A DNA stretch of 64,000 nt from Bacteroidales bacterium (lineage in GTDB: Bacteria > Bacteroidota > Bacteroidia > Bacteroidales > UBA3663). The DNA lies in NCBI GenBank assembly GCA_045640225.1, contig JAZUEP010000063.1, positions 2,243 through 66,242 of the forward strand, written 5' to 3'. The first letter of the stretch is position 1. Every line of letters starts with the position of its first letter. Positions 33,692-54,381 of this stretch are shown here, piece after piece. The position numbers and the translations under genes were made by a program. The notes below the pieces were generated by a model. The model ran no database searches and was not told where the DNA came from. It saw nothing but the letters and a program-made list of their open reading frames with translations.

Positions 33692-33901
33692 TTACTCAGC
33701 AGCGGTGCAGCATGAATCAGCAACAGCGCAGCAAGAGTCAGCAGCAGCGCAGCATGAATCGCAGCAAGCAGCGAGGGTGTCAACTACCTCCTCAACGACT
33801 GCAGCAGCCTCCTCAACGGGAGCCTCAGCTGGCTTGTTAGAAGTGCAAGCTGCAAAGCAAGCAGCTACCATAACACCTGCGAAAAGAACCAATTTCTTCA
33901 T
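33692..33901 (-). CDS. Small lipoprotein with a tandem CC-dipeptide tail (CCDSCC-AAADSCC-AVADSCC)
   Basis: 69 aa. Signal plus lipobox MKKLVLFAGVMVAACFAAC. C-terminal 25 aa contain four Cys-Cys pairs with a DSCC periodicity. Confidence 0.6.
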   Translation of the reverse strand: MKKLVLFAGVMVAACFAACTSNKPAEAPVEEAAAVVEEVVDTLAACCDSCCAAADSCCAVADSCCTAAE

Positions 33902-34943: not shown

Positions 34944-35009
34944 ATAAGGATTAATCTTTGCGCGAAAGACGTAAACACCTAATGGCATGGCTGAGTCTTT
35001 GGCAGACAC

Positions 35010-35159
35010 TCAGTCATTGCAATCGTATGGGTCGTGGTCATGATTGCAATACCAACCCTGTACACGATCGTCCTGACGAGCATATTTCTCCCAAGGAGCT
35101 ACGTTGTCACGATGTTGCTGAGCACGCTGCTGGCGGTTGTTGTTGAAGAAGAATCCCAT
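35010..35159 (-). CDS. 49-aa Cys/His-containing small protein, copy 1 (MGFFFNNNRQQRAQQHRDNVAPWEKYARQDDRVQGWYCNHDHDPYDCND)
   Basis: Below the ORF-track cutoff and translated by hand. Own promoter on the minus strand (TTTG, 19 nt, TATCTTTG). A paralogue at 38919-39068 differs at many synonymous sites but only 4 residues. Confidence 0.7.
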   Translation of the reverse strand: MGFFFNNNRQQRAQQHRDNVAPWEKYARQDDRVQGWYCNHDHDPYDCND

Positions 35160-35225
35160 AGTCGTAATGTTTTATTGGTTTAACTTGGTGCAAAGATAGG
35201 GAGTTCTGAGCGAATGGCAAAATCT

Positions 35226-35239
35226 TGACAACGTTGTCA
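35226..35239. promoter_or_regulatory. Perfect 14-bp palindrome TGACAACGTTGTCA just upstream of the -33 element of small gene copy 1 (operator-like)
   Basis: Read directly. An identical palindrome lies at 39135-39148 in the same position relative to copy 2. The half-site ACGTTGTCA recurs inside both coding sequences. Confidence 0.6.
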
Positions 35240-35397
35240 CGTCATTGTTATAACAGAGACTTTATGCGGAAGTGAAGGGTACTCTACACTATGTTTTAGC
35301 CATAAAAATCGTGCAAATTCAAATATTTAAGACTATAAAATAAAAAAACTCATCAAAAATTTGGATATGCCAAATAAAACCTCTATCTTTGCACCGG

Positions 35398-35492
35398 AAA
35401 GTTAGTCGTAATGACTGTGATGTAATCGGTCTGTGCAGAAGTCCCCGCCTGCGAGGCATCACTCTTCGGAGTAAACATGGTCATACGTTTTT
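35398..35492 (+). ncRNA. Candidate structured small RNA of about 95 nt, family not recognised
   Basis: Consensus Bacteroidetes promoter TTTG (35360-35363), 20 nt, TATCTTTG (35384-35391). Closing stem CGTAATGAC (35407-35415) / GTCATACG (35480-35487) followed by TTTTT. Inner stems TGTGATG/CATCAC, GCAG/CTGC and a CTC-TTCG-GAG tetraloop hairpin. No ORF. Confidence 0.45.
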
Positions 35493-35513
35493 CTGGGGCA
35501 GAAACAAAGCATT

Positions 35514-36119
35514 TCACTTTTTGTGAGATGCTTTATTTTTTTCTTGTAGGCAAAGAGGTTCGATTGTCTCGTTCTCTTTCAACGCTGTAATACCATACTG
35601 AATTTTATCAAGTGTGCGATTTCGTACCCCAACGGTCAACTTGATTGTGCCAAGAAAAGTGTCATTGTATGACATCAGGATCATTTTGATTAACTTACTT
35701 TGATTTTTATTGTCACGTTTCGGGATATCAAGGGCTACTTGGACTGCACAAGACAATATCTCTTCCAACTTAAAGACAGCCAATGTAGATTTATAGCGTT
35801 TAGCAGCATGGCCAGCCGCCTCAACTACAGATTCCTTTCTTATAAGGATATCTGCATTTAGAGACTTATTATAAACCGACTTTTCCGGATGATCAGCTTT
35901 CCATTCTTGATAGAAATCATAGATAATTTGCTTCCTTTGTTTTATGGCCTCGGGAGATTCACCCATGGGAATGCCATTCTCATCATAAACCAAAGGTGTA
36001 GGTTCGTCTCCTGTATCATCCGTTGCGTCACGAACAATCTTACCTAGAGATTCCAGGTCAAATTCATAGTTCAAATCCCACTCTATATCGAGTAGTTCAT
36101 ATTCAAGAGCGTCTTCCAT
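35514..36119 (-). CDS. Hypothetical protein, about 201 aa, acidic N-terminus, no recognisable catalytic motif
   Basis: Start moved to MEDALEYELL (36119) because the module-A -7 box (36139-36146) lies inside the longer track ORF. A faint resemblance to polyvalent-protein LPD/PBECR-type domains is unverified. Confidence 0.6.
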   Translation of the reverse strand: MEDALEYELLDIEWDLNYEFDLESLGKIVRDATDDTGDEPTPLVYDENGIPMGESPEAIKQRKQIIYDFYQEWKADHPEKSVYNKSLNADILIRKESVVEAAGHAAKRYKSTLAVFKLEEILSCAVQVALDIPKRDNKNQSKLIKMILMSYNDTFLGTIKLTVGVRNRTLDKIQYGITALKENETIEPLCLQEKNKASHKK

Positions 36120-36138
36120 ATTTACAATCATTTGGCAG

Positions 36139-36214
36139 CAAAGATAAATACTTTTTTTCATTCCACAATCAAATCACCCCGAAAAAGTACAAAGGATTGG
36201 ACTTTTTCGGGGTG
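36139..36214 (-). promoter_or_regulatory. Cassette boundary module A, copy 1 (terminator hairpin plus promoter)
   Basis: On the minus strand: CCCCGAAAAAGT-12 nt-ACTTTTTCGGGG hairpin (36177-36212), TGATTTGATTGTGGAATGAAAAAAA, then TATCTTTG (36146-36139). About 75 nt are shared with copies at 38715-38789 and 42238-42310. Confidence 0.75.
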
Positions 36215-36255
36215 CATTATATCATCTTTGAGGTAGTATTACTCTCCCTCCGACG

Positions 36256-36954
36256 CTATTTCGATGACTGAATGTCTTTTTTGACAGAAGACGTGTTTTG
36301 TACCACAAACAGACAATCTCTCAACTTATCGTAGTACAAATAGCCGTCAACGTATTTTTGCTTGAACTGCAGAAGGAAGGAACGATGAACGACAGGTTCT
36401 GACATCTGACTGATTGGTACTATGAACAGTTCATCAGGATGAGACTCAGTACCGCCCACACCCAATGCCACGAACACAGAAGCTCCACGGTCTTTACCGA
36501 ACTGAACATATCGGTCAATCTGCTCACTTCTTGCCCACGTTACAGTGCCATTGACAAAACTATTTCGCCATTTGCATTCCACACCCAACAGCCGGCTTTC
36601 TCCTCCCCCGACATTAAGCTTCAATACCAGATCTGGATTACAATTTGATTCGGGATAAACCCCATTGGAATACTTATCACCCTGCCACTCCAACAGTTCA
36701 CGGAATTTGCTGTGTTGTTTGAAGCCAAATAGATCTACTATATGGCTCTCAAACTCCGTTCCTTTCTTGTCTTCATGGAATGTTGCATCGGAAGGGACTG
36801 GAATAACATCACTTGGTTTTTCGTCCAATGCTGCAAGCGGTTGTGTCGTAGATGGAGATTGCAGATCTTTCTCAATGCTTTTGCCTTTTGCTATCATCCA
36901 CACGCCCAATAGCGACAAGCATATACCGCTAACAATCAACAAATATCCAATCAT
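36256..36954 (-). CDS. Membrane-anchored PD-(D/E)xK restriction-endonuclease-fold protein (complete E...PD...ExK)
   Basis: 232 aa. N-terminal TM helix MIGYLLIVSGICLSLLGVWMIA and a P/S/T linker. C-terminal domain with FESHIVDLF, NPDLVLKL and GVECKWR. Paralogous to the upstream gene. Confidence 0.6.
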   Translation of the reverse strand: MIGYLLIVSGICLSLLGVWMIAKGKSIEKDLQSPSTTQPLAALDEKPSDVIPVPSDATFHEDKKGTEFESHIVDLFGFKQHSKFRELLEWQGDKYSNGVYPESNCNPDLVLKLNVGGGESRLLGVECKWRNSFVNGTVTWARSEQIDRYVQFGKDRGASVFVALGVGGTESHPDELFIVPISQMSEPVVHRSFLLQFKQKYVDGYLYYDKLRDCLFVVQNTSSVKKDIQSSK

Positions 36955-36965
36955 GCAAACTATTG

Positions 36966-37604
36966 TTATTTAATGGTTAATCTATTGGTCGAGGTCTCAT
37001 AGAAGAACTTACCCTCCTTTGTTGTGACTTCATATTTGGACAACACAGATGTATAGATGTTAGCGTACGGACGTTCGTCTAATGGAACGACGTAAAGCTG
37101 CTCCGGATTACGAGGAGCGCCTCCAATCCCGACAACGATAAATACCTTAGCATTATTCTTCTTTTCGTAACTCTTCAGCACCTCAATCTTTTCTTCCTTA
37201 CACCAATCGAGGCTTTCCTGAGGCATATCCTGGCGCCATACACATTCTACAGCAAATCGATAATCCTTACCACCTGCAGTAAGCTTGATATCCAGATCAG
37301 GCTTGGTTGCTGTGGAGCTATTGTCTGCACGAGAGAGCAGAGTCAGTGATTTGCGCGAAAAATCGAACTTCGAAATCACATACTCCTCAAAAGCCTGACC
37401 TTTCTGCACGTTGCTTTGACCACTGTTTATCGTTTTTGAGGATGTCTCATTCACCTTTATCTGTTTTGGTTCAGTGGATAAAGCCGCTGCTGTAGGTTTT
37501 GACGATTCCTTATCACTGTCTTCTGCATTGATCGCATAGAATCCGATTGCTGTAAGCACAATTCCAACGGATAATATTATGATGCCAATAGTATTCTGTT
37601 TCAT
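36966..37604 (-). CDS. Membrane-anchored PD-(D/E)xK-like paralogue with a degenerate third motif (ECV instead of ECK)
   Basis: 212 aa. TM helix IGIIILSVGIVLTAIGFYAI and an S/T/K linker. FEEYVISKF, KPDLDIKL and AVECVWR. Collinear with the 232-aa neighbour through VFIVVGIGG...QLYVVPL. Confidence 0.6.
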   Translation of the reverse strand: MKQNTIGIIILSVGIVLTAIGFYAINAEDSDKESSKPTAAALSTEPKQIKVNETSSKTINSGQSNVQKGQAFEEYVISKFDFSRKSLTLLSRADNSSTATKPDLDIKLTAGGKDYRFAVECVWRQDMPQESLDWCKEEKIEVLKSYEKKNNAKVFIVVGIGGAPRNPEQLYVVPLDERPYANIYTSVLSKYEVTTKEGKFFYETSTNRLTIK

Positions 37605-37836
37605 CTTCTATTGTTCTTAGTTCTTACCTCTATTATATGAAATAGTCGAGTCATCAGCCGCCATGCTTCTTGACGAAGGCATGAGGCTCAGATCATAAAG
37701 CTTCGCAGGTGCATCTGAAGCGCCTTGCGATGAGTGTCCATTCGTAACGTAAAGCATCCTCGCTATATCAAGTACAGTTCGCGCACTGCTTGCCATTCAT
37801 ACCCAAGGCGCACAAGGCATCTTGAGTGGAATGATA

Positions 37837-37893
37837 TTTGAGGTAGAAGACATTTGTTTCGTTGATTATGTTTATGTAGATACACTAACCATC
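37837..37893 (-). pseudogene. Gene 3'-end remnant, module B copy 1 (in-frame stop)
   Basis: Minus-strand translation DG*CIYINIINETNVFYLKY is homologous to the remnant at 42379-42435 (DGWYIYYNISNETNVIDLNY). No start codon or upstream ORF. Confidence 0.5.
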
Positions 37894-37946
37894 TGATTAA
37901 TTCTATTGTAACTGAATGGGATGGATTTATTAGCTTATATAGGTAT

Positions 37947-38363
37947 TTATTCAGATTCTGTAATTCGTGAAGAAAGGATTTCTTTTACTCGGTTAAGAAG
38001 GGTTCGTGTGGGTTCAAACTTTTCCTCAATGTCTTGCTTTGTCGCTTTGAAAAAACAGTCATAGTCTGATTTTTCTCTCATGGTCTCCAATTGGGAATAC
38101 AACTTGCCTTCGGCATCGGTTAGTTCACCCGTTATGACATAGTATTGACCAACAAGGCTTTTTATGCCATTATGTTTGTGCGAAGGATGTTGGTCCTGGA
38201 TCAACAAGGCACGAAAAGCATTGACCATTGAGTAATATAGTCTATTAGCAGCCATTGACCATGCTTCTATTTGGCATGCTTTTTCTGCATCATCCCAACA
38301 TTGGTCAGCCTTTTCGATGTATAGTTCAACCATCGCATTACGGTTATCAGATTCAAGGCTCAT
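37947..38363 (-). CDS. HEPN-domain protein (toxin-like partner of the MNT-HEPN pair)
   Basis: 138 aa. HEPN (PF05168-like) pattern ...ANRLYYSMVNAFRALL...HKHNG...LETMREKSDYD. 4-nt ATGA overlap with the upstream MNT gene. Confidence 0.8.
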   Translation of the reverse strand: MSLESDNRNAMVELYIEKADQCWDDAEKACQIEAWSMAANRLYYSMVNAFRALLIQDQHPSHKHNGIKSLVGQYYVITGELTDAEGKLYSQLETMREKSDYDCFFKATKQDIEEKFEPTRTLLNRVKEILSSRITESE

Positions 38364-38674
38364 AAGATTGATATTTTATCTTTTTCTACGTTATTGTAAA
38401 ATGGGCTGGAAACACGTTGTGCCCATTGCTCATAGGTATAGAGTATAGGACTTACATCTGCCTGGTTTTTCCATCCCCATAAAACAAAAGGATAGCAATA
38501 TGCATCCTCATCTGATGAATTTACGGAACTCTTATTGACAAGGATAAGCAGATCCCAGTCAGAATCCTCGTTAGCTTCCCCTCTGGCCCGTGATCCATAA
38601 AGCCAAACCTTACTACCATCTGGCAGCACTTGTTTAGCCACATCACGGAATCCTTGAATAATATTTCCATTCAT
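38360..38674 (-). CDS. Minimal nucleotidyltransferase (MNT) domain protein
   Basis: 104 aa. Pol-beta NTase motif LYGSRARGEANEDSDWDLLILV. Confidence 0.85.
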   Translation of the reverse strand: MNGNIIQGFRDVAKQVLPDGSKVWLYGSRARGEANEDSDWDLLILVNKSSVNSSDEDAYCYPFVLWGWKNQADVSPILYTYEQWAQRVSSPFYNNVEKDKISIL

Positions 38675-38714
38675 ACTCTTCTAAAATTTAAGATAATATT
38701 CCCATATTGCGCCG

Positions 38715-38789
38715 CAAATATACATCTTTTTTTTCATTCCACAATCAAAACACCCCGAAAAAGTGCAGAGGATGGACTTTTTCGGGGTT
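38715..38789 (-). promoter_or_regulatory. Cassette boundary module A, copy 2 (terminator hairpin plus promoter of the MNT-HEPN unit)
   Basis: Hairpin arms 38753-38764 / 38776-38787. TATATTTG -7 box at 38722-38715. The MNT ATG lies 40 nt downstream. Confidence 0.75.
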
Positions 38790-38918
38790 CAATGATTGCA
38801 TGATATCAAATTATGGAGTCTTCGGCATCACGTTGTCAGTCGCCCAGAGGGTCAATGCAGTACGGATCATTTTCGTCGAGCATGTGGTAGATCATTTCTT
38901 CATCCATAGCAGTAAGTA

Positions 38919-39068
38919 TTAGTCGTTGCAGTCGTATGGACCATGGTCATGATTGCAGATCCATCCCTGTATGCGATCGTCCTCACGAGCATACTTCTCC
39001 CACGGAGCTACGTTGTCACGATGTTGCTGTGCGCGCTGCTGGCGATTGTTGTTGAAAAAGAATCCCAT
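38919..39068 (-). CDS. 49-aa Cys/His-containing small protein, copy 2 (MGFFFNNNRQQRAQQHRDNVAPWEKYAREDDRIQGWICNHDHGPYDCND)
   Basis: Hand translation. Same promoter and operator layout as copy 1. Confidence 0.7.
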   Translation of the reverse strand: MGFFFNNNRQQRAQQHRDNVAPWEKYAREDDRIQGWICNHDHGPYDCND

Positions 39069-39134
39069 AGTCGTATTGTTTTATTGATTTAACTTGGTGC
39101 AAAGATAGGGAGTTTTGACGAGACAGCAAAACCT

Positions 39135-39148
39135 TGACAACGTTGTCA
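39135..39148. promoter_or_regulatory. Second copy of the TGACAACGTTGTCA palindrome
   Basis: Read directly. Same spacing to the -33/-7 elements of small gene copy 2. Confidence 0.6.
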
Positions 39149-39241
39149 CTTCAATTCAGCGCAAAACGGACTTGGAAAATGTAATTTATATATAGCAATC
39201 GCACCCGTAAGGAAATTTTTTTAGACGTTATAGTCAGGCTC

Positions 39242-39295
39242 ATTCCCTGTTATGTGGAGATGCGGGTCGACCCGCATCTCCACATAACAGGGAAT
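39242..39295. repeat. Perfect 54-bp palindrome (27+27, no spacer)
   Basis: ATTCCCTGTTATGTGGAGATGCGGGTC|GACCCGCATCTCCACATAACAGGGAAT, verified base by base. It lies between two divergent promoters. Confidence 0.95.
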
Positions 39296-39378
39296 ACGGT
39301 ATTTTTACAAAATTGTTCATTTGGCAAATCAAAATTTAATGCGTATCTTTGCCGTGTGAAAAATCAAAAAATAACATT

Positions 39379-40119
39379 ATGAACAAACTAAAAGAAATTT
39401 ACCGCGAGTTAATCTCCGCAATTAAAGAGTCGAATCTGGTATCGTATGATACCGTTAAATTTGGTGTTCAAACAGGACGGTTATATCCTGCGAATTCTCC
39501 GAATGTTGGAATGATGGTTATCGGGCGATCTTGCAATGGTTGGACAGCTTACAGCGACGATGTCGATGTCCTGTTTGGCGAAGGCAAATCATCAATGTTT
39601 AGTACAGAACCTTTTAGCTTTTTAAAAGAGGATAATAACCAATACAATCCAAAGCGCTCAGCTTTCTGGAGAGTAGTAGAAGCTATTGCAGCGACGTTTT
39701 ATGGCGAAAAACAATGGTCAGATTACATAGCGTGGAGTAACCTTTATAAAGTTTCACCAGAAGAAGGTAACCCCAACCGGACACTCGGCGGCCTTCAGTA
39801 CAAGCATTGCGTAGAGATTCTACGATACGAAATAGAGATGCGGTCACCAAGCATCATTATTTTCCTCACAGGCGATGACTCTAAAGACTGGTTGACAGAA
39901 GATTTTATAAAGTCTGCATGTGGAGGTATCGTCCCATCCTCCTTCACGGAGATCAAATGGGACAAATTTCGGTTGCTTTATTCAAAAATCAGCAATGACA
40001 GAGCAATAATCATCACCGAACACCCCCAAGGGAAGAAGGAGCAACCTCATATTGAAGCTATAATAGATTGTATTCGAAAAGCTAACATCAATTTATATAT
40101 TAATTCTCGCCACAAGTAA
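39379..40119 (+). CDS. Uracil-DNA glycosylase superfamily-like protein (family unassigned)
   Basis: Start at MNKLKEIY (39379), downstream of TTTG, 20 nt, TATCTTTG (39344-39351). UDG-like layout: MVIGRSCNGW (motif-1 position), SNLYKVSPEEGNPNR...C...L..EI....PSIIIFLTG, and a late ITEHPQG (motif-2 position). Confidence 0.5.
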   Translation: MNKLKEIYRELISAIKESNLVSYDTVKFGVQTGRLYPANSPNVGMMVIGRSCNGWTAYSDDVDVLFGEGKSSMFSTEPFSFLKEDNNQYNPKRSAFWRVVEAIAATFYGEKQWSDYIAWSNLYKVSPEEGNPNRTLGGLQYKHCVEILRYEIEMRSPSIIIFLTGDDSKDWLTEDFIKSACGGIVPSSFTEIKWDKFRLLYSKISNDRAIIITEHPQGKKEQPHIEAIIDCIRKANINLYINSRHK

Positions 40120-40123
40120 AATA

Positions 40124-40474
40124 TTATGGCTTGATGACCGTATCATCAGCAATATGATGGATTAGCTGTTCTGTCGTGTCATAAACATAAGGCAAGGCTG
40201 TAACTGCTGTCGTAGAGACAATAATGTCATCATCAAGTGCAACGGAGAGTTTGGCTATCGTAGCTAGCGTGAGGTTGTGCGTTCCACTCAGCCATCGGCT
40301 TACTTCTGTTTCGGTTTTTCCGAGTCTTTTCGCCAATTCTTTTTGACTCATATTTTTTGTCTCTAGCAATTCATACACCCTATTGGCGATCTGCACAGAC
40401 AGATCGACTTGTCGCCGAATCTCTGGTGTTGTTGCTTCGCGTATGCTTTGCATTATAGGATTGATCTTTGCCAT
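40124..40474 (-). CDS. XRE-family helix-turn-helix protein
   Basis: 116 aa. HTH_3-type MSQKELAKRLGKTETEVSRWLSGTHNLTLATIAKLSVAL. Confidence 0.85.
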   Translation of the reverse strand: MAKINPIMQSIREATTPEIRRQVDLSVQIANRVYELLETKNMSQKELAKRLGKTETEVSRWLSGTHNLTLATIAKLSVALDDDIIVSTTAVTALPYVYDTTEQLIHHIADDTVIKP

Positions 40475-40691: not shown

Positions 40692-42164
40692 CTAAAATTC
40701 TATTCCGCACTCGTATTTATACAAGTTCTCTGTGAACTCTTTTGAAAAAGATACAGATGCACCATCTCGTATCACTATCACGTAACTTTTAAACAATCCA
40801 CCCCATTGAGACCAAAAACAATACGTAATCAACGCATGCATATTATCCATTATTCTCACACGAGGAAGGATTGAATCATCATTTAGGAACTTGCCGATTT
40901 CTGCTACTTTGATATTATAGAGCTTCGGCAAACTGGTTATGATAGTACGAGATCTATACATCGCATGCCAATCCAGCGGAAGAGAGTTTGGCAACTCATG
41001 TAATAACCATGCTTGCCAGATAGCAACTTCTGTAAATGGCATCTCAAGATAACCAAAGACAGATGGCAACAGTTCTCCAATATCATAAGGTATTTTACCC
41101 GATAAAATAGTTTCTCCATCAAATACCAGAGCCTCCTCTTTAGTCTCTGGGTTCTTCTTCTCTTTTGCTGTTTCTTTCCTTGCATAGAGACGAACCGAAG
41201 CGCCATAGAAATCACCGACCTTAACCCCATCAAGTATATAGCCATCTTTCAGTTTCAGGCTATCGAGAGATTCCATTACATCCTGAAGATTTTCAAAAGC
41301 ACGATGTTCTTTAGAGCCAAATACAATCCTGAAATTAAGTGTACTAATCCAAAGAGGATCATATTTGTCAAAGACACATTTTTTTAATGTTATTGCTTTA
41401 TAGTATGAGCTTTTCTCATCTATGTAGTTAACACCATCCGATCGTTGAGACAATGTAAAGCTTCTTTTACCGAGACTTGTTTCAATGCAAAAACCCCAAT
41501 TATTCCCTACCCATACTAAAGATACATTCTTGAATGCACCACCTAAGAATGAACGCTTCAAGACACAGTACTCGAAAAAAGTCTTAACCTCAGCAATACC
41601 TCGAACTGTACACTTTTCTGAATTAACAGATAAAACTACATTTGGATTCAGGATGCTTTCTATCATCTCATACTTACCTGCCATAATAGCTTTGCCAAAC
41701 CTGTCTGCAAGAAACAAATTGCGCATTTCCACCTTCTTGCCGTCATCTTTAGGGCCATAGATAGAGTCTTGACTAAAGTCATGTTGATACGGCATTGCAT
41801 AACGAGGACTATCTACAAAGTTATCATATTCATCCCAGAAGGAAATATTCAGTACTCGTACCAATAGTTTGTGTTCTAATATCTGTTGGCCATATTTTGC
41901 CTGAAATTCCTCAGAAGAGATTCCTGGATTCACAAAAATATGAATCAAAGGACTATCTGTAGCCTCTAACATAGGAACTGCAAATTCAGCGATATAATCA
42001 CCTATCATCAAATCTGAGTCAACAACTCTTCCCTCATAGTAATTACGAGCGAGTTCCCTATATATCGAAATTTTATCAACCTCTGACATAGGTTGATAAT
42101 TGAGTCTTGGCTCACCATCTACAATATATAAGGTGTATCTATAGTCTGCTTCTATTGCTCTCAT
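40692..42164 (-). CDS. 490-aa hypothetical protein, no recognisable catalytic motif (possible NTF2/SnoaL-like middle segment)
   Basis: Long intact ORF in AT-rich DNA, driven by module A copy 3. The segment AIMAGKYEMIESILNPNVVLSVNSEKCTVRGIAEVKTFFEY resembles SnoaL-like folds, by eye only. Confidence 0.7.
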   Translation of the reverse strand: MRAIEADYRYTLYIVDGEPRLNYQPMSEVDKISIYRELARNYYEGRVVDSDLMIGDYIAEFAVPMLEATDSPLIHIFVNPGISSEEFQAKYGQQILEHKLLVRVLNISFWDEYDNFVDSPRYAMPYQHDFSQDSIYGPKDDGKKVEMRNLFLADRFGKAIMAGKYEMIESILNPNVVLSVNSEKCTVRGIAEVKTFFEYCVLKRSFLGGAFKNVSLVWVGNNWGFCIETSLGKRSFTLSQRSDGVNYIDEKSSYYKAITLKKCVFDKYDPLWISTLNFRIVFGSKEHRAFENLQDVMESLDSLKLKDGYILDGVKVGDFYGASVRLYARKETAKEKKNPETKEEALVFDGETILSGKIPYDIGELLPSVFGYLEMPFTEVAIWQAWLLHELPNSLPLDWHAMYRSRTIITSLPKLYNIKVAEIGKFLNDDSILPRVRIMDNMHALITYCFWSQWGGLFKSYVIVIRDGASVSFSKEFTENLYKYECGIEF

Positions 42165-42237
42165 AAATGTTCATAGATTATTTCTCAAAAGTACCAGCCA
42201 TTACCAATTTTGGAAAATCTTGTGGTACTATGCGAGG

Positions 42238-42310
42238 CAAATATACACATTTTTTTCATTTCTCAATCAAATCACCCCGAAAAAGTGAATGGGATGCGCT
42301 TTTTCGGGAT
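42238..42310 (-). promoter_or_regulatory. Cassette boundary module A, copy 3
   Basis: Hairpin arms about 42275-42286 / 42298-42308 (10 bp). TATATTTG -7 box at 42245-42238. Confidence 0.7.
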
Positions 42311-42378
42311 GATATTATACGTTTTATTGAGGTTAACCCTCTTCTATGCTTGACTTAAATGAATGTGTCGGATATATA

Positions 42379-42435
42379 ATTGAGGTCGATGACATTTGTT
42401 TCGTTGCTGATGTTATAATAGATGTACCAGCCATC
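42379..42435 (-). pseudogene. Gene 3'-end remnant, module B copy 2
   Basis: 30-codon open fragment RGHDIDGWYIYYNISNETNVIDLNYISDTFI* with no start codon. Homologous to 37837-37893. Confidence 0.5.
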
Positions 42436-42667: not shown

Positions 42668-43675
42668 TTATTCTTTTCTGGAGTTCTTTCTTTTACGATA
42701 CCACGTGCAGACGCTACGATACTTACTGTCAATGAAGTCTGAGATTTCGAATGCTTCACCTTCTTTGTCTTTTTCTTTTAGCAGCTTGTCAACCCATTCT
42801 CCAAGCTTCTGTTGCTTTCCGTCAAATGCTTGAGCTCCATCTTCATAATACTCCTGCTGAACGAAATCGGCCATAAGCATGAGAAATGAATAAGCATTTT
42901 TTCCGTGTTCTTGGATATTACGTTTAATCATATTCTCCAATTTTCCAAGAGCTTCAATCAGCACATCAGCTTCTGGAGACAGGTCTCGGTTCGGTTTCTT
43001 GTAGTCCAATACTTTACAAGTCAAAGGCATCATATCCTCTTCGTCCACAAAGATTTCGCTGAGCTTTTGAATCTTTTCCATGAAAGTTGCTTCAATGTCG
43101 CGAATGAAGTCAAAATCCCCTTTGCCGAGATGTTTTTCTATTTTATCATGAATATCTGATAAAGGGTTGCCATTGTGATTCGCTTTCAGTTCTTGTGTCA
43201 AATCCGGTACAAGAATAGAGTAATTATATCTGTCTTTCACCCTATGGGCGAAACCAATCTGATAGCTCAGCGATGCAGTCTTGTTGTAGCTGTTTCTCAT
43301 ACGAATAAATGCTGACCACCCCTCGTTAGCTAGTGGCTGGAATCCATCAACCTTCCTAAAAATATCAATAAGACATGAACCTCTATTGTTAGACAAATAA
43401 ACATCTTGAACCATGATATCCGAATCTTGTGCCAAATTGAAAAGCCTTTTAGCAATCCATCGTTGAAGATTGAATGCATCTTGATTTAAGACTAAGCAAT
43501 ACGTAGCTCCCACAATTGTAAAATAACTCTCTTTTTCGATATCAACGACGGCAGCATGTCTGAATGCGCGGCGTGCGTCAGCTAAGTATCCTCCACTGGT
43601 CTTTTCGAACGACCAATATGCAGGTAAAAGTTCTACTTCGAAAAATGCAGATTTCAGCTCTAAATTGTGTGGCAT
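42668..43675 (-). CDS. DUF932-like protein (tentative), last gene of the R-M-like operon
   Basis: 335 aa. TYCLVLNQDAF and IRMRNSYNKTASLSYQIGFAHRV resemble the DUF932 core (y.lv.N..af ... NShdgs.al....G..R.v). C-terminal helical K/E-rich half. Confidence 0.5.
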   Translation of the reverse strand: MPHNLELKSAFFEVELLPAYWSFEKTSGGYLADARRAFRHAAVVDIEKESYFTIVGATYCLVLNQDAFNLQRWIAKRLFNLAQDSDIMVQDVYLSNNRGSCLIDIFRKVDGFQPLANEGWSAFIRMRNSYNKTASLSYQIGFAHRVKDRYNYSILVPDLTQELKANHNGNPLSDIHDKIEKHLGKGDFDFIRDIEATFMEKIQKLSEIFVDEEDMMPLTCKVLDYKKPNRDLSPEADVLIEALGKLENMIKRNIQEHGKNAYSFLMLMADFVQQEYYEDGAQAFDGKQQKLGEWVDKLLKEKDKEGEAFEISDFIDSKYRSVCTWYRKRKNSRKE

Positions 43676-43689
43676 AATGTAATTGTATA

Positions 43690-43818
43690 TTATTGGTTTA
43701 GCGAAGTTTTAAAATTCTTCCCATACTGATCTGCCGCATCGGTGAGTTTGTCATCGATGGGCAGATTCATATCACGCAGAGATTTCAGCGTGGTGTATAG
43801 TTCTTTGAGGGTTGCCAT
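43690..43818 (-). CDS. 42-aa ORF filling the gap between the methyltransferase and DUF932-like genes (MATLKELYTTLKSLRDMNLPIDDKLTDAADQYGKNFKTSLNQ)
   Basis: Hand translation. The start lies 12 nt after the MTase stop, and the stop lies 14 nt before the next start. Coding status is unproven. Confidence 0.35.
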   Translation of the reverse strand: MATLKELYTTLKSLRDMNLPIDDKLTDAADQYGKNFKTSLNQ

Positions 43819-43830
43819 AGCTTTGACGTT

Positions 43831-46800
43831 TTATTCATCTCCCGCCATGCGGAACTCTAACTCATAATTTTTGATGAAGTCGGTTTCTTCTGGAGTGAGG
43901 CCATAAAGCGGACCAATGTAGTCGTCTATGCGATCGATGATGGCTTTTGACTTGACAATCTTGTATTCCTTGAATTCGGAAACATTGTATCTTGAATCTC
44001 CACTTGATTGCCTAACATTTGCATGTGCTTCGACATCATGTTGGTACTCATCGTAGAAATTGTTCAAAACATCGATTTGTTCATCGGTAAGATTTGGTAT
44101 GGTAAATGATAGAAGTTCATCACTCTTCCAATCCAAATTATTTGAGATTATCTGATAATACCAAAAAGAAAGGTTGCTGCTGAGTATACATCCAATGGCA
44201 TTAGCAAGTTTCTTTTCAAACAAGATTGCCTTCTCCTTGGTTGATCCTGTACTATAATTTGTTACAATTTTGAAGTACCTACCGCCTGTTGTTCTATAAT
44301 AAATAGGATCACCATCTTCGCGGACATATGAGGAAAGCATTGTTTTGTTCCACACCTTGTCAAGAATACGCTTCTCAGTTTCTAATCCTATTTTAGGTAT
44401 ACGACCAAACAACTTCAAATGCCCTAACACATTTGTAAATTGCAAGGTATCAATCAGCGCTTGCAGATCAAAGTCACGCCCTTTCCTGTGCATCTTTGTG
44501 GAAAGAAGTTGCTTACAAGGTGTCTTTGTCTTCTGAAACATAAGAATTGAAGTATTCACAACTGCATTCTTGAAAACCGGTTGAGGACGCACTGAGTATG
44601 AAGAAATCTTAATGCCTCGGCAGTTTTCGAGCAGCAGTTTATGGACACCAGAAAGAGAGTCACTCGAAGTCAACGAGATAGGCACAATATAAGTCATGAA
44701 TGCATCTTTGCGAAGGAGCCAGTAAGCCAATTCGATGAACATAGTATAAGAATCCATCGAACCTTTCTGTTTGCCTTTAATTGTTTTTGTCGTGTTATAG
44801 AACTTCTTCACTATGGCCTTATCATTTTCGCTTAACTTTGCTCCATACGGAGGATTGCCTATGACAATATCAAATCCATTTTTATCAGGATTAGTATTAT
44901 CAAAAGCATCTGAGAACATCACCTTGTAGTCAAAGAAAGGCAAACTCAACTTCGCTCTTTCCGCAAGACTAATTGTTTCATCATTCAAAAGAGCACGAAG
45001 CTGTTCTCCGGTTACGAGTATGTCTCGAAGATTCCCTTTCAATTGAGACTTGAGTTCCACATCTGGCTTACCGAATAACTCAGTTTGGACAGAATCGCCA
45101 CCTGCATTAATATCGGCAACAAGCTGAAGAGCCACAATGTTTAAGATGCAATGTTTGATATTGATAGAGCATTGTAGTTTATCATCTCCAGACAAATAGA
45201 AATATTGTTTTTGGAACTCACGCAGTTTTTGCTTTTCTTTACGAATAGCTTCAATCTTGCCATGGACTTGTCTGTCGCTGATATTTACATACTTTCCGTT
45301 AAAAGTCGTAAAGAGCGAATTTCCTTGCATAATCTTGTAATCAAGATTTGGTAGCACTTCTGGGGTTGCTTCGTCAACTACCAGTGTAAGCCAGAAACGA
45401 AGACGTGCAATATCAACAGCGCCTTTTTCAAGGTCAACGCCATAAATATTCTCTTGAATTATGTGACGCTTTATCTCTACCGAATTGTCGAAATTCTCAA
45501 TAGCACCACGGCAGAAGAACAGCTCTTTGAGTAGCCCCATTGGGAAAGCGCCAGAACCGATAGCAGGGTCACAAATCTTTATGCTTGCCAATCGTCTGTC
45601 AACCTCTTCAATAATATCTGCAGGCAATACATTTATATTATAAGAGGTAACAAACTCACGAATCTGCTCACGGTACTCTCGCGGGAAATCATTTTGTAAG
45701 TACGAGATAAGCGACTCCTTGCACATGTATCGTACAATCTCCTTCGGTGTGTAATATGCACCTTTGTCTTTGTTGTCTTCCAGCAGGTTTTCGAATATCT
45801 GTCCTAACATCTCAGGATCAATACCCACCTCGGCATCACTTGGATCATTCTCGTCGATGGTGAAGTTGTATTGATTGAACATCTTCAGCAATTCGCTGAA
45901 ATACTCTTTCGGGAATACTGTACGTACCTCATCGTCCTCATCACGACCAAATAAGCCGCCATTGAGGTAAGGGATTCGCAGGACGCCATTATTCGGAAAA
46001 TCCTTAATCTGAGTGTCGAAGATGTCACCGTTTGCGCTTCTGTCTGTATCAAGAGCTTCGTCAAATAGAGGCTCGAGTATTTCGTCGAGGAAGTTCTCCT
46101 GTTGTGCTTCTGTTGCCTGATGGAATAAGTTGTACATAAAGTTCTTGTCTCCATCATTCCAAGTCTTGCCAGGTTCCACGCCCATCCATCCTTTCTTTTG
46201 TAGGAAGTGCAGGAACACAATACGGCCAAGGAGCTTCTTTACATAATCGCGTACCCGCTTGTCGTCACGTCCGAAGTCTGCATACATTTGCGGATGAGGT
46301 TCGTGAAACACCTTTTCTTTCCAGCCGCCATCTTTCTTCACAAATTTCTTGCCAGTAATAAACATCACGAACTTCTCGTACTGATCCTTGTACTTCTTGA
46401 AGAACTCATCTGAGAGAGCCTCAACGTCGAAAGCCTTCACAATGTCGTCACGCTGCACATTACCTTTCTTGCCAAAAAGCTTCAAGAAGTTTTGTGCGGC
46501 GGTTCGACATGATTGACCTGGACCGAGAAGGAAAGTGTATCGTTTTGCTTCGGTAATGTTCTTATCGTCCTTCTGGCAGAACGAGAAACGCCAGTCGAGT
46601 TGCCAGTTATCCTTGTAGTGGAAGATGATGAAGGCAGAGGAATACGTGTTCATGATACGGCGAATGAGCTGCTGGATGCCCACACGATTGCGCTGCATCT
46701 GTACGCTGTCATTCACAGTTACGTCAAAGATGTCAATCGTAACATGACCAACGCTGACGGTACCATATTTGATAATATCTTTGATGCCAGTTCGTATAGC

Positions 46801-46953
46801 CATTCCCTGTAATTCCTCATCCTCGAGCACAGGCAGTTGCCACGCAGTTTCGTAATTCTCTTCGCCAAAGATAGGGAAAATAATGGTTTCGAGGAACGAC
46901 TCCTCGCCTTGATACTCACTGCTGAGATACGCTTGTAGTTTTTGCTCGTCCAT
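43831..46953 (-). CDS. Gamma-class N6-adenine DNA methyltransferase with specificity region (Eco57I/PglX-like large MTase)
   Basis: 1040 aa. Motif I ICDPAIGSGAFPMG precedes motif IV DIVIGNPPYG. A long C-terminal region is compatible with a TaqI-like TRD. The N-terminal ~350 aa lack an obvious E-x-K nuclease motif. Confidence 0.85.
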   Translation of the reverse strand: MDEQKLQAYLSSEYQGEESFLETIIFPIFGEENYETAWQLPVLEDEELQGMAIRTGIKDIIKYGTVSVGHVTIDIFDVTVNDSVQMQRNRVGIQQLIRRIMNTYSSAFIIFHYKDNWQLDWRFSFCQKDDKNITEAKRYTFLLGPGQSCRTAAQNFLKLFGKKGNVQRDDIVKAFDVEALSDEFFKKYKDQYEKFVMFITGKKFVKKDGGWKEKVFHEPHPQMYADFGRDDKRVRDYVKKLLGRIVFLHFLQKKGWMGVEPGKTWNDGDKNFMYNLFHQATEAQQENFLDEILEPLFDEALDTDRSANGDIFDTQIKDFPNNGVLRIPYLNGGLFGRDEDDEVRTVFPKEYFSELLKMFNQYNFTIDENDPSDAEVGIDPEMLGQIFENLLEDNKDKGAYYTPKEIVRYMCKESLISYLQNDFPREYREQIREFVTSYNINVLPADIIEEVDRRLASIKICDPAIGSGAFPMGLLKELFFCRGAIENFDNSVEIKRHIIQENIYGVDLEKGAVDIARLRFWLTLVVDEATPEVLPNLDYKIMQGNSLFTTFNGKYVNISDRQVHGKIEAIRKEKQKLREFQKQYFYLSGDDKLQCSINIKHCILNIVALQLVADINAGGDSVQTELFGKPDVELKSQLKGNLRDILVTGEQLRALLNDETISLAERAKLSLPFFDYKVMFSDAFDNTNPDKNGFDIVIGNPPYGAKLSENDKAIVKKFYNTTKTIKGKQKGSMDSYTMFIELAYWLLRKDAFMTYIVPISLTSSDSLSGVHKLLLENCRGIKISSYSVRPQPVFKNAVVNTSILMFQKTKTPCKQLLSTKMHRKGRDFDLQALIDTLQFTNVLGHLKLFGRIPKIGLETEKRILDKVWNKTMLSSYVREDGDPIYYRTTGGRYFKIVTNYSTGSTKEKAILFEKKLANAIGCILSSNLSFWYYQIISNNLDWKSDELLSFTIPNLTDEQIDVLNNFYDEYQHDVEAHANVRQSSGDSRYNVSEFKEYKIVKSKAIIDRIDDYIGPLYGLTPEETDFIKNYELEFRMAGDE

Positions 46954-46961
46954 AGCTTAAG

Positions 46962-49900
46962 TTATTTGGCAAGCGCAAGGTACACCTCGGGTACGCCTGT
47001 CTGCTTAGTTTGTTCTGAAACGATATTGTCTAACTTTCGGGCAATGATGCCATCTATTTCCTCTTGCGTAAGGACAAAGAGAGACTGCTGATCATCGTAC
47101 ACCTCCCGACCAATGGCATTGATAGTTCGGATAATATCAGAATTTCCCTTGTTCACCATTTGGAAGGCTGCATCGAGGAGATTCTGTGAGTGCTGGCTCA
47201 ACTGACCAGATTCACTCATCTTGACGATGACGCCCTTGGCGTTGGTTGCCGCCTTATCTTTCACCTTGTAGCTGTTGAGCTTTGCAAGGTGTTGGCCAAC
47301 GGTGCGGATAGCGGTACGACATTTTTGCTCCCAATCAGATGGGAGGTCGATACGAGGAGCGTCAGGTGCGGTAATGAAGTTTGGATAGAAGTCAATACCG
47401 GTGACAATCTTGCCCTTTCCTTCTGCATCGACACGAACGAAGAGACCTTTCATCTTTGGAGTGCGCACCACAAAGTACGCAGCACCATCAGCAGTTGTTG
47501 TTGCAAGCTGAAGGTCATCCTCCTTCTGGCAGATAGCCTCGTAGCGCAGAGGATTCGCATCACGATACTTCTTCAACTGATGGATGTATTGCTCGTATGG
47601 TGACTCCTCGCCATTGACAATGCCGTTGAGGTCGTAGTGTTCCACAGTTTCGTCCTCGGTGAACACCTTGCTGTCCTCTCCGAAAAGTGTATGGAACGAC
47701 TGAAGTTTGATGTGTGCTTTCTCTACCAATTGTATCTGCTGGTCTCCTTGGGCACTTGGCATGAAGTTATAAACGTAAACGTATGGCTCGCTGGAGCCGA
47801 TGCGGTTCACGCGGCCGATGCGCTGCATCAGGCGTGTTGAGTTCCATGGGGTATCATAGTTCAGGATGCAGTTGGCGCGATGCAGGTTGATACCCTCGGC
47901 AAGTACCTCGGTGGTGATGATAATCTGATAGTCATTCTTCCACTCACCCTTGTAGTTGGCATCGAAGTTCTCTTGAATCTTCTGTTGCATCTCATCGCGA
48001 TTAGCAGCTGTGATAGCCAGCGTCCTATTCTTGAATCCCTTATTTTCGCAGACACGCTTCAAGGTATTGACCGTATCAATCGCTTCGGAGAAGATAACAA
48101 GCTTCTGTGGACGGTTGCGTTCGGCGTTGAATAGTACAGGCTTCAATGCCTCCTTGAACTCATCGAGCTTAGGATCCTCCGAGTTCTTTGCCCAACGGTC
48201 ATAGAGGTTGCAAATGAGCTCGTAATCAGTCTTCAGAAGTTCGATGTAGGCGGGATTGAAAGCGTCGCGAGTGTATTCGGCATTCTGCTCTTTTTCGTTC
48301 TTGCCCTTTTCTGTGAGCTTCTTGATACGGGCACGTATGTCATCGGCGCATTCGGCAAACGTCACCTTGTGTCCACGCTTCTCAGTCTTAGCCTTCTCGT
48401 CAAGTTCGGCATTCACGTCAAACTGCGGACAGATAAAGATGGCGTTGTTCTCCCACATGCGAATCATGTTGGCTGTGTAATTACGGAGATTGAGAAGTGA
48501 CTGCGTGAAGGCGGAGAATGAACTTTCGAGCCGCTTTACAAGCAGAATCTGCATGATCTTGGCAAGCTGTTCGCCCACCTTCTCGGGGTCACGCGAACCA
48601 CGACCCTGATACTTCTGTAGATCCTCAGGCTTAGTGAGATATTGGATGGCACGATAGCGGTAGTAGCAAAGGTAGTCGGAGTTGTTGAACTTGAAATCAG
48701 GCGTTGGCGAAATCAGGTTCATGGTGTCGGCAAAGAGCTGAGCCAGTTGGTCATCCATCTTGTACTTGAGGCTGTGGGGACCACTGATGGCTGGGAATAC
48801 CAAATGCTGTTTCTCCATGTCTGCGGCATAGTACTTTTTGATGTCGGTACGAGTGCGACGAACCAGCATATCGCACAGAACGGCATCGCGTATGGTGGCA
48901 GAAATTTTCTTGAAGGCTTCGTTGATTTCCTCCAGACACTGTTCGTCCTCAGGTGTCTTGATGGGTTTTGCGGAAATTTCGCTTGCCTCCTTGCGGAGTG
49001 CGAGGTATTCGGCCATTATGCCAGAGAAGAACGCTTCAAGATTGCGACCGTCCACCTTTTCGAGGGTGCAGTACTGATGGTTGCGTTCGAAGAGGTAAAT
49101 CTGATTCTTCAGGTCGTTTGGCGTATTGTTCTGTGGAGTAGCAGAGAGAAGACCGATGTAGGGATAGTTGCCCGTGCTGGCACCAATCTGAGCAATGAGG
49201 TCATCAAGGGCGTTGTACATCTGTGTGCCACTATTGCGGAACTTATGGCTCTCGTCAATGATGATAAGGCCGTAGTTGTGATACTCCAAATTGCCCTCAA
49301 ACTCCCCGCTATCAGTATCCGCATCTTCGTCATCTTCTACGAGATTACCGATTGATCCTGTGGTGATAAAGTCGATGAGCGGTTCTATCTGATCATCGCT
49401 ATCCTTATCAAATTCGCGAATGGTATCAACCCAAGCCTTCTTGATGGCAGGAGGCGTGACGATGAGCACTTTGCGTTCACGACCGTCATCTGGATAGTTG
49501 AGGAAATACTTTATGACGAGCGTACCCACGATGGTTTTGCCCAATCCTACTACATCGGCAAGCATAAAACCGCCATGTGCCTTCATGATGCCGAAGCATT
49601 GCTTCACGGCATCCATCTGGTATTCGAGTGGCGAGAAGTCCTTGGGCAGGTAGCTGGAGATGACCTGCGTGGTATCGACATCCAGAAGGTCACCAAACTT
49701 GTATTGCAGAAGTTTGAGGTAGAGTTCGTAGGGAGTGAGAGGTGCAGAGAGTTCCTTCTGCTTCTCTTTCTCTATCTTTTCGACAGGTTTAGAAGGCTGA
49801 AGTATTTGCTCCAGGAACTCTTGGGTCCAATCCTTTGAGAGAGCCCATTTCTCTTCGAACCATGTGATATGACCTTTTCTTGTAGGCTTCAATTCGGCAT

Positions 49901-53800: not shown

Positions 53801-54381
53801 AGCCCCTACCCCCTAACCCCTCCCCCGAACGGTGGAGGGGAGTAGATAGTATAATGGGCAAATATTTATTGGTTGTTAATATCGGTGAAGATGATATGCT
53901 GACGGATTGATCGCTTGACATCGTCGGTGTGATATAGGACTTCATCGTTCGTGAATCGCAGAACGCGATAACCCATTTGATTCAAGATGGCGGTTCGGCG
54001 CTCGTCATCTTCGCGTTGCTCTGGAGTCTCGTGATAGCCGCCATCCACTTCGATGACCAATTGCTCGTCAAGGCAAACAAAATCCGCAATGAATTCGCCT
54101 ATGGCATGCTGTCTACGGAATTTGATGCCCAGACCTTTGCGTCGCAGTATCTGCCATAGCATGTCTTCGGCCAGCGTTGGATTCTTCCGATTCTCGTCGG
54201 CATATTCGCGCAACGTGCCATATAGCATCGGATCCGCCGTTTTATTCTGAGAAGAGAAGTCTTCCCTTTGCCTCTTGATCATGCATTATCCATTTTTTGG
54301 GGTGGCATCAAATACCTCTCTCGTCCTCAGAAGCATCCTACTCCCCTCCACCGCTCGGGGGAGGGGCTGGGGGTAGGGGCT
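53801..54381. mobile_element. IR-flanked DUF559 cassette occupying the argC-argD spacer
   Basis: A 45-bp left arm (53801-53845) and 44-bp right arm (54338-54381) are reverse complements at about 41 positions. The arms abut the argD start and the argC stop. Confidence 0.6.
53866..54282 (-). CDS. DUF559 (Vsr/PD-(D/E)xK-like) endonuclease-domain protein
   Basis: 138 aa. Motif pattern GIKFRRQHAIGEFIADFVCLDEQLVIEVDGGYH...RTAILNQMGYRVLRFTNDEV. Confidence 0.85.
   Translation of the reverse strand: MIKRQREDFSSQNKTADPMLYGTLREYADENRKNPTLAEDMLWQILRRKGLGIKFRRQHAIGEFIADFVCLDEQLVIEVDGGYHETPEQREDDERRTAILNQMGYRVLRFTNDEVLYHTDDVKRSIRQHIIFTDINNQ

Follow-up and report, generated by a model that had tools for sequence, protein, structure and literature searches.

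What is the function of two neighbouring genes that encode the same small membrane-anchored protein twice, once with an intact nuclease-like site and once with a degenerate one? Such a pair, genes A and B (Table 1), is found in a 64,000-nucleotide stretch of the genome of a Bacteroidales bacterium (contig JAZUEP010000063.1, positions 2,243 to 66,242; this whole stretch is hereafter referred to as the window). A first-pass annotation, made from the sequence alone, had proposed the two genes as a candidate abortive-infection pair. The analysis reported here places them in a family of proteins with a membrane-anchored architecture whose domain, set apart by library searches, fits best as a new and unnamed branch within the PD-(D/E)xK nucleases. 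The family is a credible new anti-phage gene candidate. Its structural and family description is the part of our account that we hold with high confidence.

The first-pass annotation had described two paralogous genes separated by 11 nucleotides (nt), each encoding one transmembrane (TM) helix, a linker and a C-terminal domain of ~120 amino acids (aa). Both open reading frames (ORFs) were found in this arrangement, and the paralogy was borne out by BLASTP, which aligned A with B over 221 columns (86.7 bits, E=1e-25, 26% identity) with all motifs quoted in the annotation in register. AlphaFold2 models of A and B were built from alignments of 22 and 21 homologues, respectively. The mean predicted local distance difference test (pLDDT) scores were 82 for A and 83 for B, with domain blocks exceeding 90. 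The models contain an N-terminal hydrophobic helix (residues 2-24 in A and 3-27 in B) and a disordered linker with pLDDT below 50 (residues 29-52 and 29-58), followed by a C-terminal alpha/beta domain (residues 61-217 and 65-212). The proposed architecture was thus recovered, the exception being the length of the domain, which is ~150 aa and not ~120 aa.

Foldseek searches of the Protein Data Bank (PDB) with the models returned archaeal Hjc as the top match for A (E 1.1e-5, target-normalised TM-score 0.64-0.70) as well as for B (E 5.2e-5, target-normalised TM-score 0.62-0.67). RecU, the SPARDA nuclease domain and R.SwaI followed, and among viral structure models the best matches were phage RecU/Hjc-type resolvases. 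Judging from these matches, the modelled domains of both proteins have the PD-(D/E)xK (restriction-endonuclease-like) fold, as had been suspected from the spacing of conserved residues. At the level of sequence, A did not join the Hjc/RecU profiles, there being no Pfam match for A at E<=1, and no match was obtained in PDB sequence searches with a single sequence or with a profile. Some homologues match phrog_244 below threshold (E 5e-4 to 0.1).

Conservation of the active site was counted in 265 domain instances aligned to the family profile. The four residues of the catalytic tetrad are retained in 251 (E), 262 (D), 262 (E) and 247 (K) of them. Also near-invariant, in A numbering, are C127, W/Y129 and R130, which belong to an 'ECKWR' motif; a G165-x-G-G motif (165-168 in A); and a W90-x-G/S-D93-K94-Y/F loop that leads from the first helix to the PD strand. 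Gene A encodes every one of these features: the tetrad is complete (E69, D108, E126 and K128), P107-D108 forms the PD, and the loop reads WQGDKY (residues 90-95). From its fold and intact site, A is most likely a Mg2+-dependent DNA endonuclease. In B the two glutamates and the aspartate are kept (E73, D103 and E120), with V122 in place of the lysine. Neither B nor any other protein of the B clade has the catalytic Lys or the WxGDKY loop. The distinction between one intact and one degenerate copy, drawn already in the annotation, is therefore upheld.

Only 16 and 8 relatives came out of word-indexed homologue searches, and the family seemed very rare. An exhaustive profile search returned 1,856 clusters (50% identity) at E<=1e-3, including 476 at E<=1e-30. 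Nearly all members are 190-290 aa long and have one N-terminal hydrophobic helix and the ECKWR motif; every member that is named in its source is a 'hypothetical protein'. When one genome per species was scanned (185,579 species) with an alignment of A-type sequences only as the query, 200 stretches encoding a relative were found. Most are in Bacteroidota, the hosts being Prevotella, Bacteroidales, Cytophagales, Algoriphagus, Pontibacter and Flavobacteriales, and a few members are in Planctomycetota and Desulfobacterota. The family was not found by tblastn in 50,697 phage or 72,556 plasmid records, and a scan of 2.9 million viral contigs produced one weak match.

The annotation had recognised no named defence system here, and library searches led to the same result. 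Neither A nor B matched a Pfam, NCBIfam or PHROG family, and in comparisons of both proteins with NERD, Mrr_cat, Shedu DUF4263, Cap4-type and PDDEXK_n no Pfam match rose above the gathering score. A few homologues match PDDEXK_15 at E 0.008-0.09, which is under its cut-off. Matches in the PADLOC collection were marginal: A matched no system component of PADLOC-DB v2 significantly, its best match being PDC-M15A (E 0.0032). Among 110 family members compared with PADLOC, 12 match PDC-M15A (best E 6e-5) and 7 match PDC-S48 (best E 3e-4), and one family member weakly matches CARF_PDDEXK_TM (E 0.005). PDC-M15, through its component A, and PDC-S48 are the sole candidate systems of the defence database to give a signal, which covers the PD...ExK core only. 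Such a signal reads as distant superfamily resemblance and not as membership.

Several variants of the common architecture were observed (relatives are cited below by our serial labels). Some members carry a TerB or DUF533 domain between the TM helix and the nuclease domain, with scores over the curated cut-offs (TerB in L038, 29.2 bits; DUF533 in P0116, 31.3 bits). TerB proteins are components of Bunzi and Shango, two defence systems for which surveillance of the membrane was proposed (bioRxiv 10.1101/2022.05.11.491447). The TerB domain is what some family members share with these systems; A and B have none, and Bunzi and Shango use helicase/ATPase partners, not an Hjc-like nuclease. About 20 of the 150 best matches are 350-400 aa long and have a cleavable signal peptide (e.g. 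MRKRIISLFLLALLCFVTYA/QD), a ~130-aa domain, one TM helix, an RRRK/KRKR flank (mean net charge +4.15) and the nuclease domain, in this order. The combination of a signal peptide, a TM helix and a strongly basic flank indicates that the intact nuclease domain of this subfamily is cytoplasmic and its ~130-aa domain periplasmic, a receptor-like layout. Metagenome loci L088-L096 encode a distant ~165-aa relative without a membrane helix (its N-terminus reads …KGEAFEDYVRK…) and 336-348-aa versions with a C-terminal extension. The fold, therefore, also occurs in soluble form.

In other genomes, the gene immediately upstream of the family member lies on the same strand at 61 of 72 loci, and the gap is 60 nt or less in 34 of these 61. 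The 71 neighbours at position -1 were scanned with Pfam and PADLOC. Matches were obtained to Eco57I (6), MmeI (5), Type ISP (4), BsuBI/PstI endonuclease (4), N6 methylase (4), GmrSD (2), HsdR-type (2) and AbiGi (1) models, counts that overlap since a multi-domain enzyme can match more than one model. Restriction-modification (R-M)-type or defence proteins make up about a quarter of the 71, and position -2 is alike. Within five genes, six clusters of R-M-type neighbours cover at least 32 of 84 loci, a lower bound since neighbours seen at a single locus are excluded, and a raw count that is not set against a genome-wide background. These clusters are Type IIG (13 loci), HsdR (6), Type ISP (6), GmrSD (4), BsuBI/PstI (4) and N6/N4 methylase (4). 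R-M-type neighbours are distributed asymmetrically (Fisher p=4e-7): 34 of them lie upstream and 5 lie downstream. All but one of these 39 are on the same strand. Thus, the family gene is typically the last in a restriction-type operon. Its recurrent placement beside defence genes in unrelated genomes, a point on which the annotation had asked for a check, is by these counts a strong association. In L022, the Type ISP enzyme that precedes the family gene contains a DUF559 domain.

No other recurrent neighbour cluster was detected at positions +1 and -1 of the genome loci. A hidden, diverged partner beside single-copy members was considered and rejected, there being no recurrent cluster or small TM neighbour except mis-split family genes. 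Upstream of the B-A pair itself, L004/5 have HsdR at a 27-nt gap, L002 has a Type ISP-like methylase plus YbjQ, and MNT-HEPN genes are found in the window and L097 only. Since the upstream partners vary, MNT-HEPN is not an obligate partner but one of several upstream neighbours of the pair. The downstream 215-aa gene was likewise rejected as a member of the unit: in L004 and L097 the pair is followed by a 159-aa gene to which it bears no relation.

The degenerate copy is not a decaying pseudogene, a possibility ruled out by the ratio of nonsynonymous to synonymous substitution rates (dN/dS), which is 0.16-0.19 for B (0.13-0.14 for A), and by 64 columns that are invariant across the B clade. 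By these measures, B is under purifying selection despite its degenerate site. To the family profile, run over all ORFs of 80 genome loci (±10 kb), a second copy was visible only in L038 and L051, while ~78 of the 80 loci are single-copy; at two of the 80 the family gene is split by frameshifts or ORF calling. The B-to-A order occurs only in relatives of the window (L097, L004/5/6, L098 and L002), and the gaps of 0-11 nt between the orthologous genes suggest translational coupling of B and A. In every contig long enough to show the pair, B adjoins A upstream; the pair is to this extent conserved, as claimed, but it is not the usual state of the family. It is a rare derived state, and the basic unit of the family is a single gene. 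Best-hit analysis put the B proteins in one clade and their A partners in another, which indicates one old duplication and co-divergence of the two copies since. The domains of the window proteins are 52-54% (B) and 42-49% (A) identical to their counterparts in L002/L098. A B-only profile run against metagenome sequences returned no more B-type genes; distant TM-less relatives and one A-type gene were obtained.

Between the window and L097, the MNT-HEPN genes, the spacer that follows them (98%) and B are 96-98% identical, and A is 85% identical at the protein level; the synonymous divergence (dS) is 0.61 for A and 0.11 for B. Such mosaic divergence suggests a recombination breakpoint between or within A and B.

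Duplication to an 'intact plus dead' state arose independently at least four times in the family. Besides the B clade, it is seen in P0025, a single chain ordered TM, ECV domain, ECK domain (19 members, contigs up to 346 kb), whose two domains are mutual closest relatives, and in P0027, ordered TM1, ECK domain, TM2, ECV domain and represented by a single 2-kb contig. The fourth case is L038/L051, where an intact ECKYR protein with TerB is followed, after 4-6 nt, by a copy of 173/188 aa in which D, E and K are all missing. The catalytic Lys was changed to Val in three of the four events. This recurrence is the strongest indirect argument that the enzyme acts as a dimer and that having one active site per assembly is advantageous.

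Our preferred explanation, to which we assign a probability of roughly 0.55, is that the pair encodes a membrane-tethered, dimer-dependent defence endonuclease with B as its non-catalytic partner. The scheme that we infer is as follows. A would be a single-pass inner-membrane protein with a cytoplasmic Hjc/RecU-like endonuclease domain; an N-out/C-in orientation fits the absence of K/R ahead of its helix and the KGK behind it. Hjc and RecU cut as dimers, and by analogy the enzyme would work as a membrane-tethered dimer. In the lineage of the window, the old duplication would have given rise to B, which lost the Lys and the WxGDKY loop and was kept by selection. A and B would then assemble asymmetrically around one active site, with B as a non-catalytic subunit for DNA binding, regulation or targeting; the A-B heterodimer as such has, in our estimate, an even chance of being real. 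One active site would result in nicking or in cutting controlled by binding, in the manner of restriction enzymes that combine an active copy and an inactive one. The pair would be transcribed from the MNT-HEPN promoter and terminated at the hairpin after A.

The role of such an enzyme would be innate defence against incoming DNA, with the tether holding the nuclease off the nucleoid and near the entry of phage or conjugative DNA. Alternatively, membrane or envelope events could be the trigger, driving clustering or dimerisation and DNA cleavage in the way that assembly activates SPARDA. We consider a defence role of the family and the pair somewhat favoured by the available data; that it takes the form of abortive infection specifically, as the annotation had it, seems unlikely.

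The preferred scheme can be compared with known systems. A and B share with Hjc and RecU (PDB 2wcw, 2wiz, 1gef and 1zp7) a compact PD-(D/E)xK core with E, D and ExK on equivalent elements. The dimeric state of these enzymes agrees with the repeated evolution of paired copies in the family. Unlike Hjc and RecU, A and B have an N-terminal membrane helix and a disordered linker, and the family has the invariant WxGDKY loop and the ECKWR and GxGG signatures. The setting is also different, since the family is found in defence islands and R-M operons and Hjc and RecU in a housekeeping or phage-replication context. The nuclease of the SPARDA short-Argonaute system (PDB 9qcc, 9jt2 and 9vx6) has a fold similar to that of A and B (Foldseek E 6e-4 to 1e-2), and the titles of its PDB entries refer to 'activated filament assembly', activation by assembly being the mode proposed for A and B. 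SPARDA is soluble, APAZ-fused and Argonaute-guided, whereas A and B have no Argonaute and do have a membrane anchor.

Among restriction enzymes, the C-terminal domain of Sau3AI is a dead copy, and BspD6I and BbvCI are heterodimeric nicking enzymes. Similarly to what is proposed for A and B, these enzymes combine a catalytic unit with a non-catalytic or unlike one and achieve asymmetric cutting or allosteric control; they are soluble and sequence-specific, whereas A and B are both membrane-anchored. The SNIPE-type injection-stage nuclease is an anti-phage nuclease that acts at the membrane. This enzyme and CARF_PDDEXK_TM share with our family the concept of a defence nuclease held at the inner membrane, but they involve other nuclease families or sensor domains, and the family lacks a CARF domain and matches no profile significantly. 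Defence nucleases that are membrane-associated or activated by assembly are a kind already known, and the family is a variant of it rather than a new category.

Several points weigh against the preferred scheme. Some PD-(D/E)xK enzymes take the Lys from elsewhere, and B is maybe not fully dead. Recurrent R-M neighbours are absent at around 60% of the loci, and housekeeping genes are numerous among the neighbours. Topology was judged from simple flank-charge rules, and these are not decisive since single-copy members have mixed flank charges. Finally, all 10 B proteins have flank charges inverted relative to those of A (+2.8 on the N side and -2.3 on the C side), with an AXA-like motif. The domain of an exported B would be unable to pair with the cytoplasmic domain of A.

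This inversion also speaks for an alternative, an opposite-topology sensor-effector pair, in which B would be exported or signal-anchored and its periplasmic dead domain would sense DNA or envelope events and switch on the cytoplasmic nuclease of A via contacts between the TM helices. The basic N-tail, acidic C-flank and AXA-like motifs (INA/E and VHA/N) of all ten B-clade proteins suit such an arrangement, as does the combination of an N-tail without K/R and a basic C-flank in the partner A proteins. The independent P0027 fusion, in which TM1, the intact domain, a basic flank, TM2 and the K-to-V domain follow one another, would place the dead domain across the membrane from the intact one, and the signal-peptide subgroup already joins a periplasmic domain to a cytoplasmic nuclease. 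P0027, however, is known from that one short contig, whereas all 19 members of P0025 have both domains behind one TM helix and on the same side; single-copy intact members, too, often have basic N-tails. We consider a sensor-effector pair improbable.

An extension of the same idea, to which we also attach a low probability, is that A-B is a two-sided device whose exported B detects incoming DNA or the phage injection apparatus, and that the whole family consists of transmembrane 'sensor-nucleases'. If this were true, the sensing part would differ among variants, such as the helix by itself, a TerB module or a periplasmic domain headed by a signal peptide, and R-M operons would recruit the family as the last gene, attacking DNA at its entry point.

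A toxin-antitoxin-like module, with B binding and neutralising a toxic nuclease A until infection frees A and causes abortive infection, would be in line with the position of B upstream of A at a 0-11 nt gap (the usual antitoxin-first order), with the conservation of B despite its degeneracy, and with the location of the pair beside MNT-HEPN in a defence island. The rest of the family argues otherwise. At ~78 of 80 loci the intact-site gene stands alone, with no paralogue and no recurrent small partner, and the nuclease, therefore, generally needs no antidote. The dead copy is downstream in L038/L051 and in P0027, and the fusion of the copies in P0025 and P0027 does not suit a releasable antitoxin. 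The odds of such a module appear small.

A further alternative is that the nuclease-fold domain is a nucleic-acid sensor and that killing is due to membrane damage by clustered N-terminal helices, i.e., to an abortive-infection pore. Many defence effectors are simple TM proteins, an N-terminal TM helix is nearly universal in the family, and the TerB-containing variants suggest a tie to membrane status. Retention of the E-D-E-K tetrad in ~93% of domains argues for catalysis, however; a single TM helix per chain is a weak pore former, and in the signal-peptide subfamily the TM helix is a stop-transfer link between two domains. We give a pore long odds. A housekeeping DNA transaction at the membrane (RecU-like resolution, DNA uptake or chromosome segregation) in place of defence is suggested by the closest structures, which are Holliday-junction resolvases, and is very unlikely given the sporadic range of the family (200 matches in 185,579 species), its location in a low-GC island, its polar linkage to R-M genes, the variation of flanking cassettes among close relatives and the absence of Hjc or RecU family membership at the sequence level.

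Interest in the family rests on its breadth in Bacteroidota, on its consistent place at the 3' end of R-M operons and on duplications that converged on an 'active plus dead' state. If it restricts phages or plasmids, a widespread compact (~200-aa) defence gene would be added for Bacteroidota, which include gut Prevotella and Bacteroidales and whose immune repertoire is poorly charted compared with those of E. coli and Bacillus. Polar attachment to many unrelated R-M types suggests that the family generally serves R-M systems as an accessory or back-up. The repeated, independent pairs of an active and a dead copy amount to a natural experiment on what favours asymmetry in nuclease dimers, and the signal-peptide subfamily, with its periplasmic domain, hints at nucleases controlled from outside the cytoplasm.

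Table 1. Positions of the genes A and B, their parts and the surrounding features in the window.
Feature	Position	Strand	Remarks
Gene A	36256-36954	minus	ORF, 232 aa; membrane-anchored, intact PD-(D/E)xK (Hjc/RecU-like) domain
A membrane anchor, residues 1-24	36883-36954	minus	N-tail without K/R; C-flank KGKSIEK
A nuclease domain, residues 61-217	36304-36774	minus	family profile match and invariant columns
A codon of catalytic Lys128 (ECKWR)	36571-36573	minus	K kept in most family domains
B-A intergenic gap	36955-36965	minus	11 nt; 0-11 nt among orthologous pairs
Gene B	36966-37604	minus	ORF, 212 aa; A-like architecture, catalytically degenerate (ECVWR, without WxGDKY loop)
B N-terminal hydrophobic helix, residues 3-27	37524-37598	minus	basic N-tail MKQN; acidic C-flank, AXA-like AINA/EDSDKE
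B codon of Val122, replacing catalytic Lys	37239-37241	minus	V or A in 10 of 10 non-redundant B-clade proteins
Terminator-like hairpin, 14-bp stem	36175-36214	minus	42 nt past A stop; -34.7 kcal/mol, z=-3.96; within repeat D2
HEPN-B spacer, 342 nt	37605-37946	minus	contains repeat D3 (37834-37893)
HEPN gene	37947-38363	minus	Pfam HEPN, 7.9e-14
MNT gene	38360-38674	minus	Pfam NTP_transf_2, 2.3e-9
Nearest upstream -7 box, TATATTTG	38715-38722	minus	ahead of MNT, inside repeat D2
Eco57I/MmeI-like N6-methylase, 1,040 aa	43831-46953	minus	library scan
PLD-nuclease + SNF2/ResIII helicase fusion, 1,197 aa	46962-50555	minus	library scan

The pair lies in a low-GC island at ~35-46 kb of the window (GC 0.37-0.43, compared with 0.50-0.53 in the flanks); one flank carries BamA/Skp and the opposite one genes of arginine biosynthesis. 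A 335-aa protein without a family is encoded, together with the methylase and the helicase fusion (Table 1), within 42668-50555 (minus strand); this gene set resembles a split restriction system of the Type ISP/IIG-like or DISARM-like kind. The MNT protein matches the PADLOC candidate PDC-S09 (E 2e-14). No canonical Rx4-6H motif was seen in the HEPN protein (…METMREKSDYD…), which may be non-catalytic.

A sigma-70 promoter scan is uninformative for Bacteroidota, and the Bacteroidetes -7 box TAnnTTTG was used instead. No such box is present on the minus strand of the HEPN-B spacer, and the nearest one upstream precedes MNT; the annotation had noted both the lack of a box before the pair and a hairpin downstream of A, and the two observations were reproduced. 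A transcript that starts at the MNT-HEPN promoter, runs on through B-A and stops at the hairpin is plausible, as the annotation had proposed. An Rfam scan of positions 35000-39500 revealed no RNA family.

The island is made up of gene cassettes set apart by repeated intergenic modules. Repeat D1 is present at 35012-35244 and 38921-39153, D2 at 36130-36225, 38706-38801 and 42228-42323, and D3 at 37834-37893 and 42376-42435. Read on the minus strand, D2 contains a terminator-like hairpin (CCCCGAAAAAG...CTTTTTCGGGG) and then a -7 box, TATnTTTG. D3 and D2 are ~50 nt apart at 42.3 kb; at 36-38 kb a 230-nt spacer, B and A lie between them, as if B-A had been inserted between D3 and D2. The motif ACCTCAAWNAT has four copies in the window versus 0.29 expected by chance. 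Three are at cassette boundaries on the minus strand (36224-36234, 37834-37844 and 42376-42386), two of which bracket the spacer, B and A; the motif may be a recombination site. A helix-turn-helix (HTH) gene at 40124-40474, on the same strand as the pair, is 81% identical to the HTH gene at 3312-3659 of L097. In L097 (and L005) this gene is two genes downstream of B-A, and in the window it is in another cassette, after a 490-aa gene, which indicates shuffling of cassettes between close relatives.

Other products of the island gave few matches. The 490-aa protein (40692-42164, minus strand) matches nothing in any library, the 215-aa protein downstream of A (35514-36161, minus strand) has a weak LPD3 match (E 0.0018), and a 256-aa protein (39349-40119, plus strand) has a weak match to the uracil-DNA-glycosylase superfamily (E 0.0027). 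As called, the 215-aa ORF starts upstream of a -7 box of its own (36139-36146), and its true start is, therefore, probably an internal Met. A perfect palindrome of 27+27 nt without a spacer (ATTCCCTGTTATGTGGAGATGCGGGTC / GACCCGCATCTCCACATAACAGGGAAT) occupies 39242-39295, between D1 and the uracil-DNA-glycosylase-like gene; its sole Rfam signal is a chance-level miRNA match. Outside the island, a DUF559/Vsr-like endonuclease (E 2.7e-33) is encoded at 53866-54282 among the arginine-biosynthesis genes. A small ORF of 69 aa at 33692-33901 (minus strand) begins with a lipoprotein-like signal (…ACFAAC), and 21-nt tandem repeats in it specify a Cys-rich repeat, CCDSCCAAADSCCAVADSCC.

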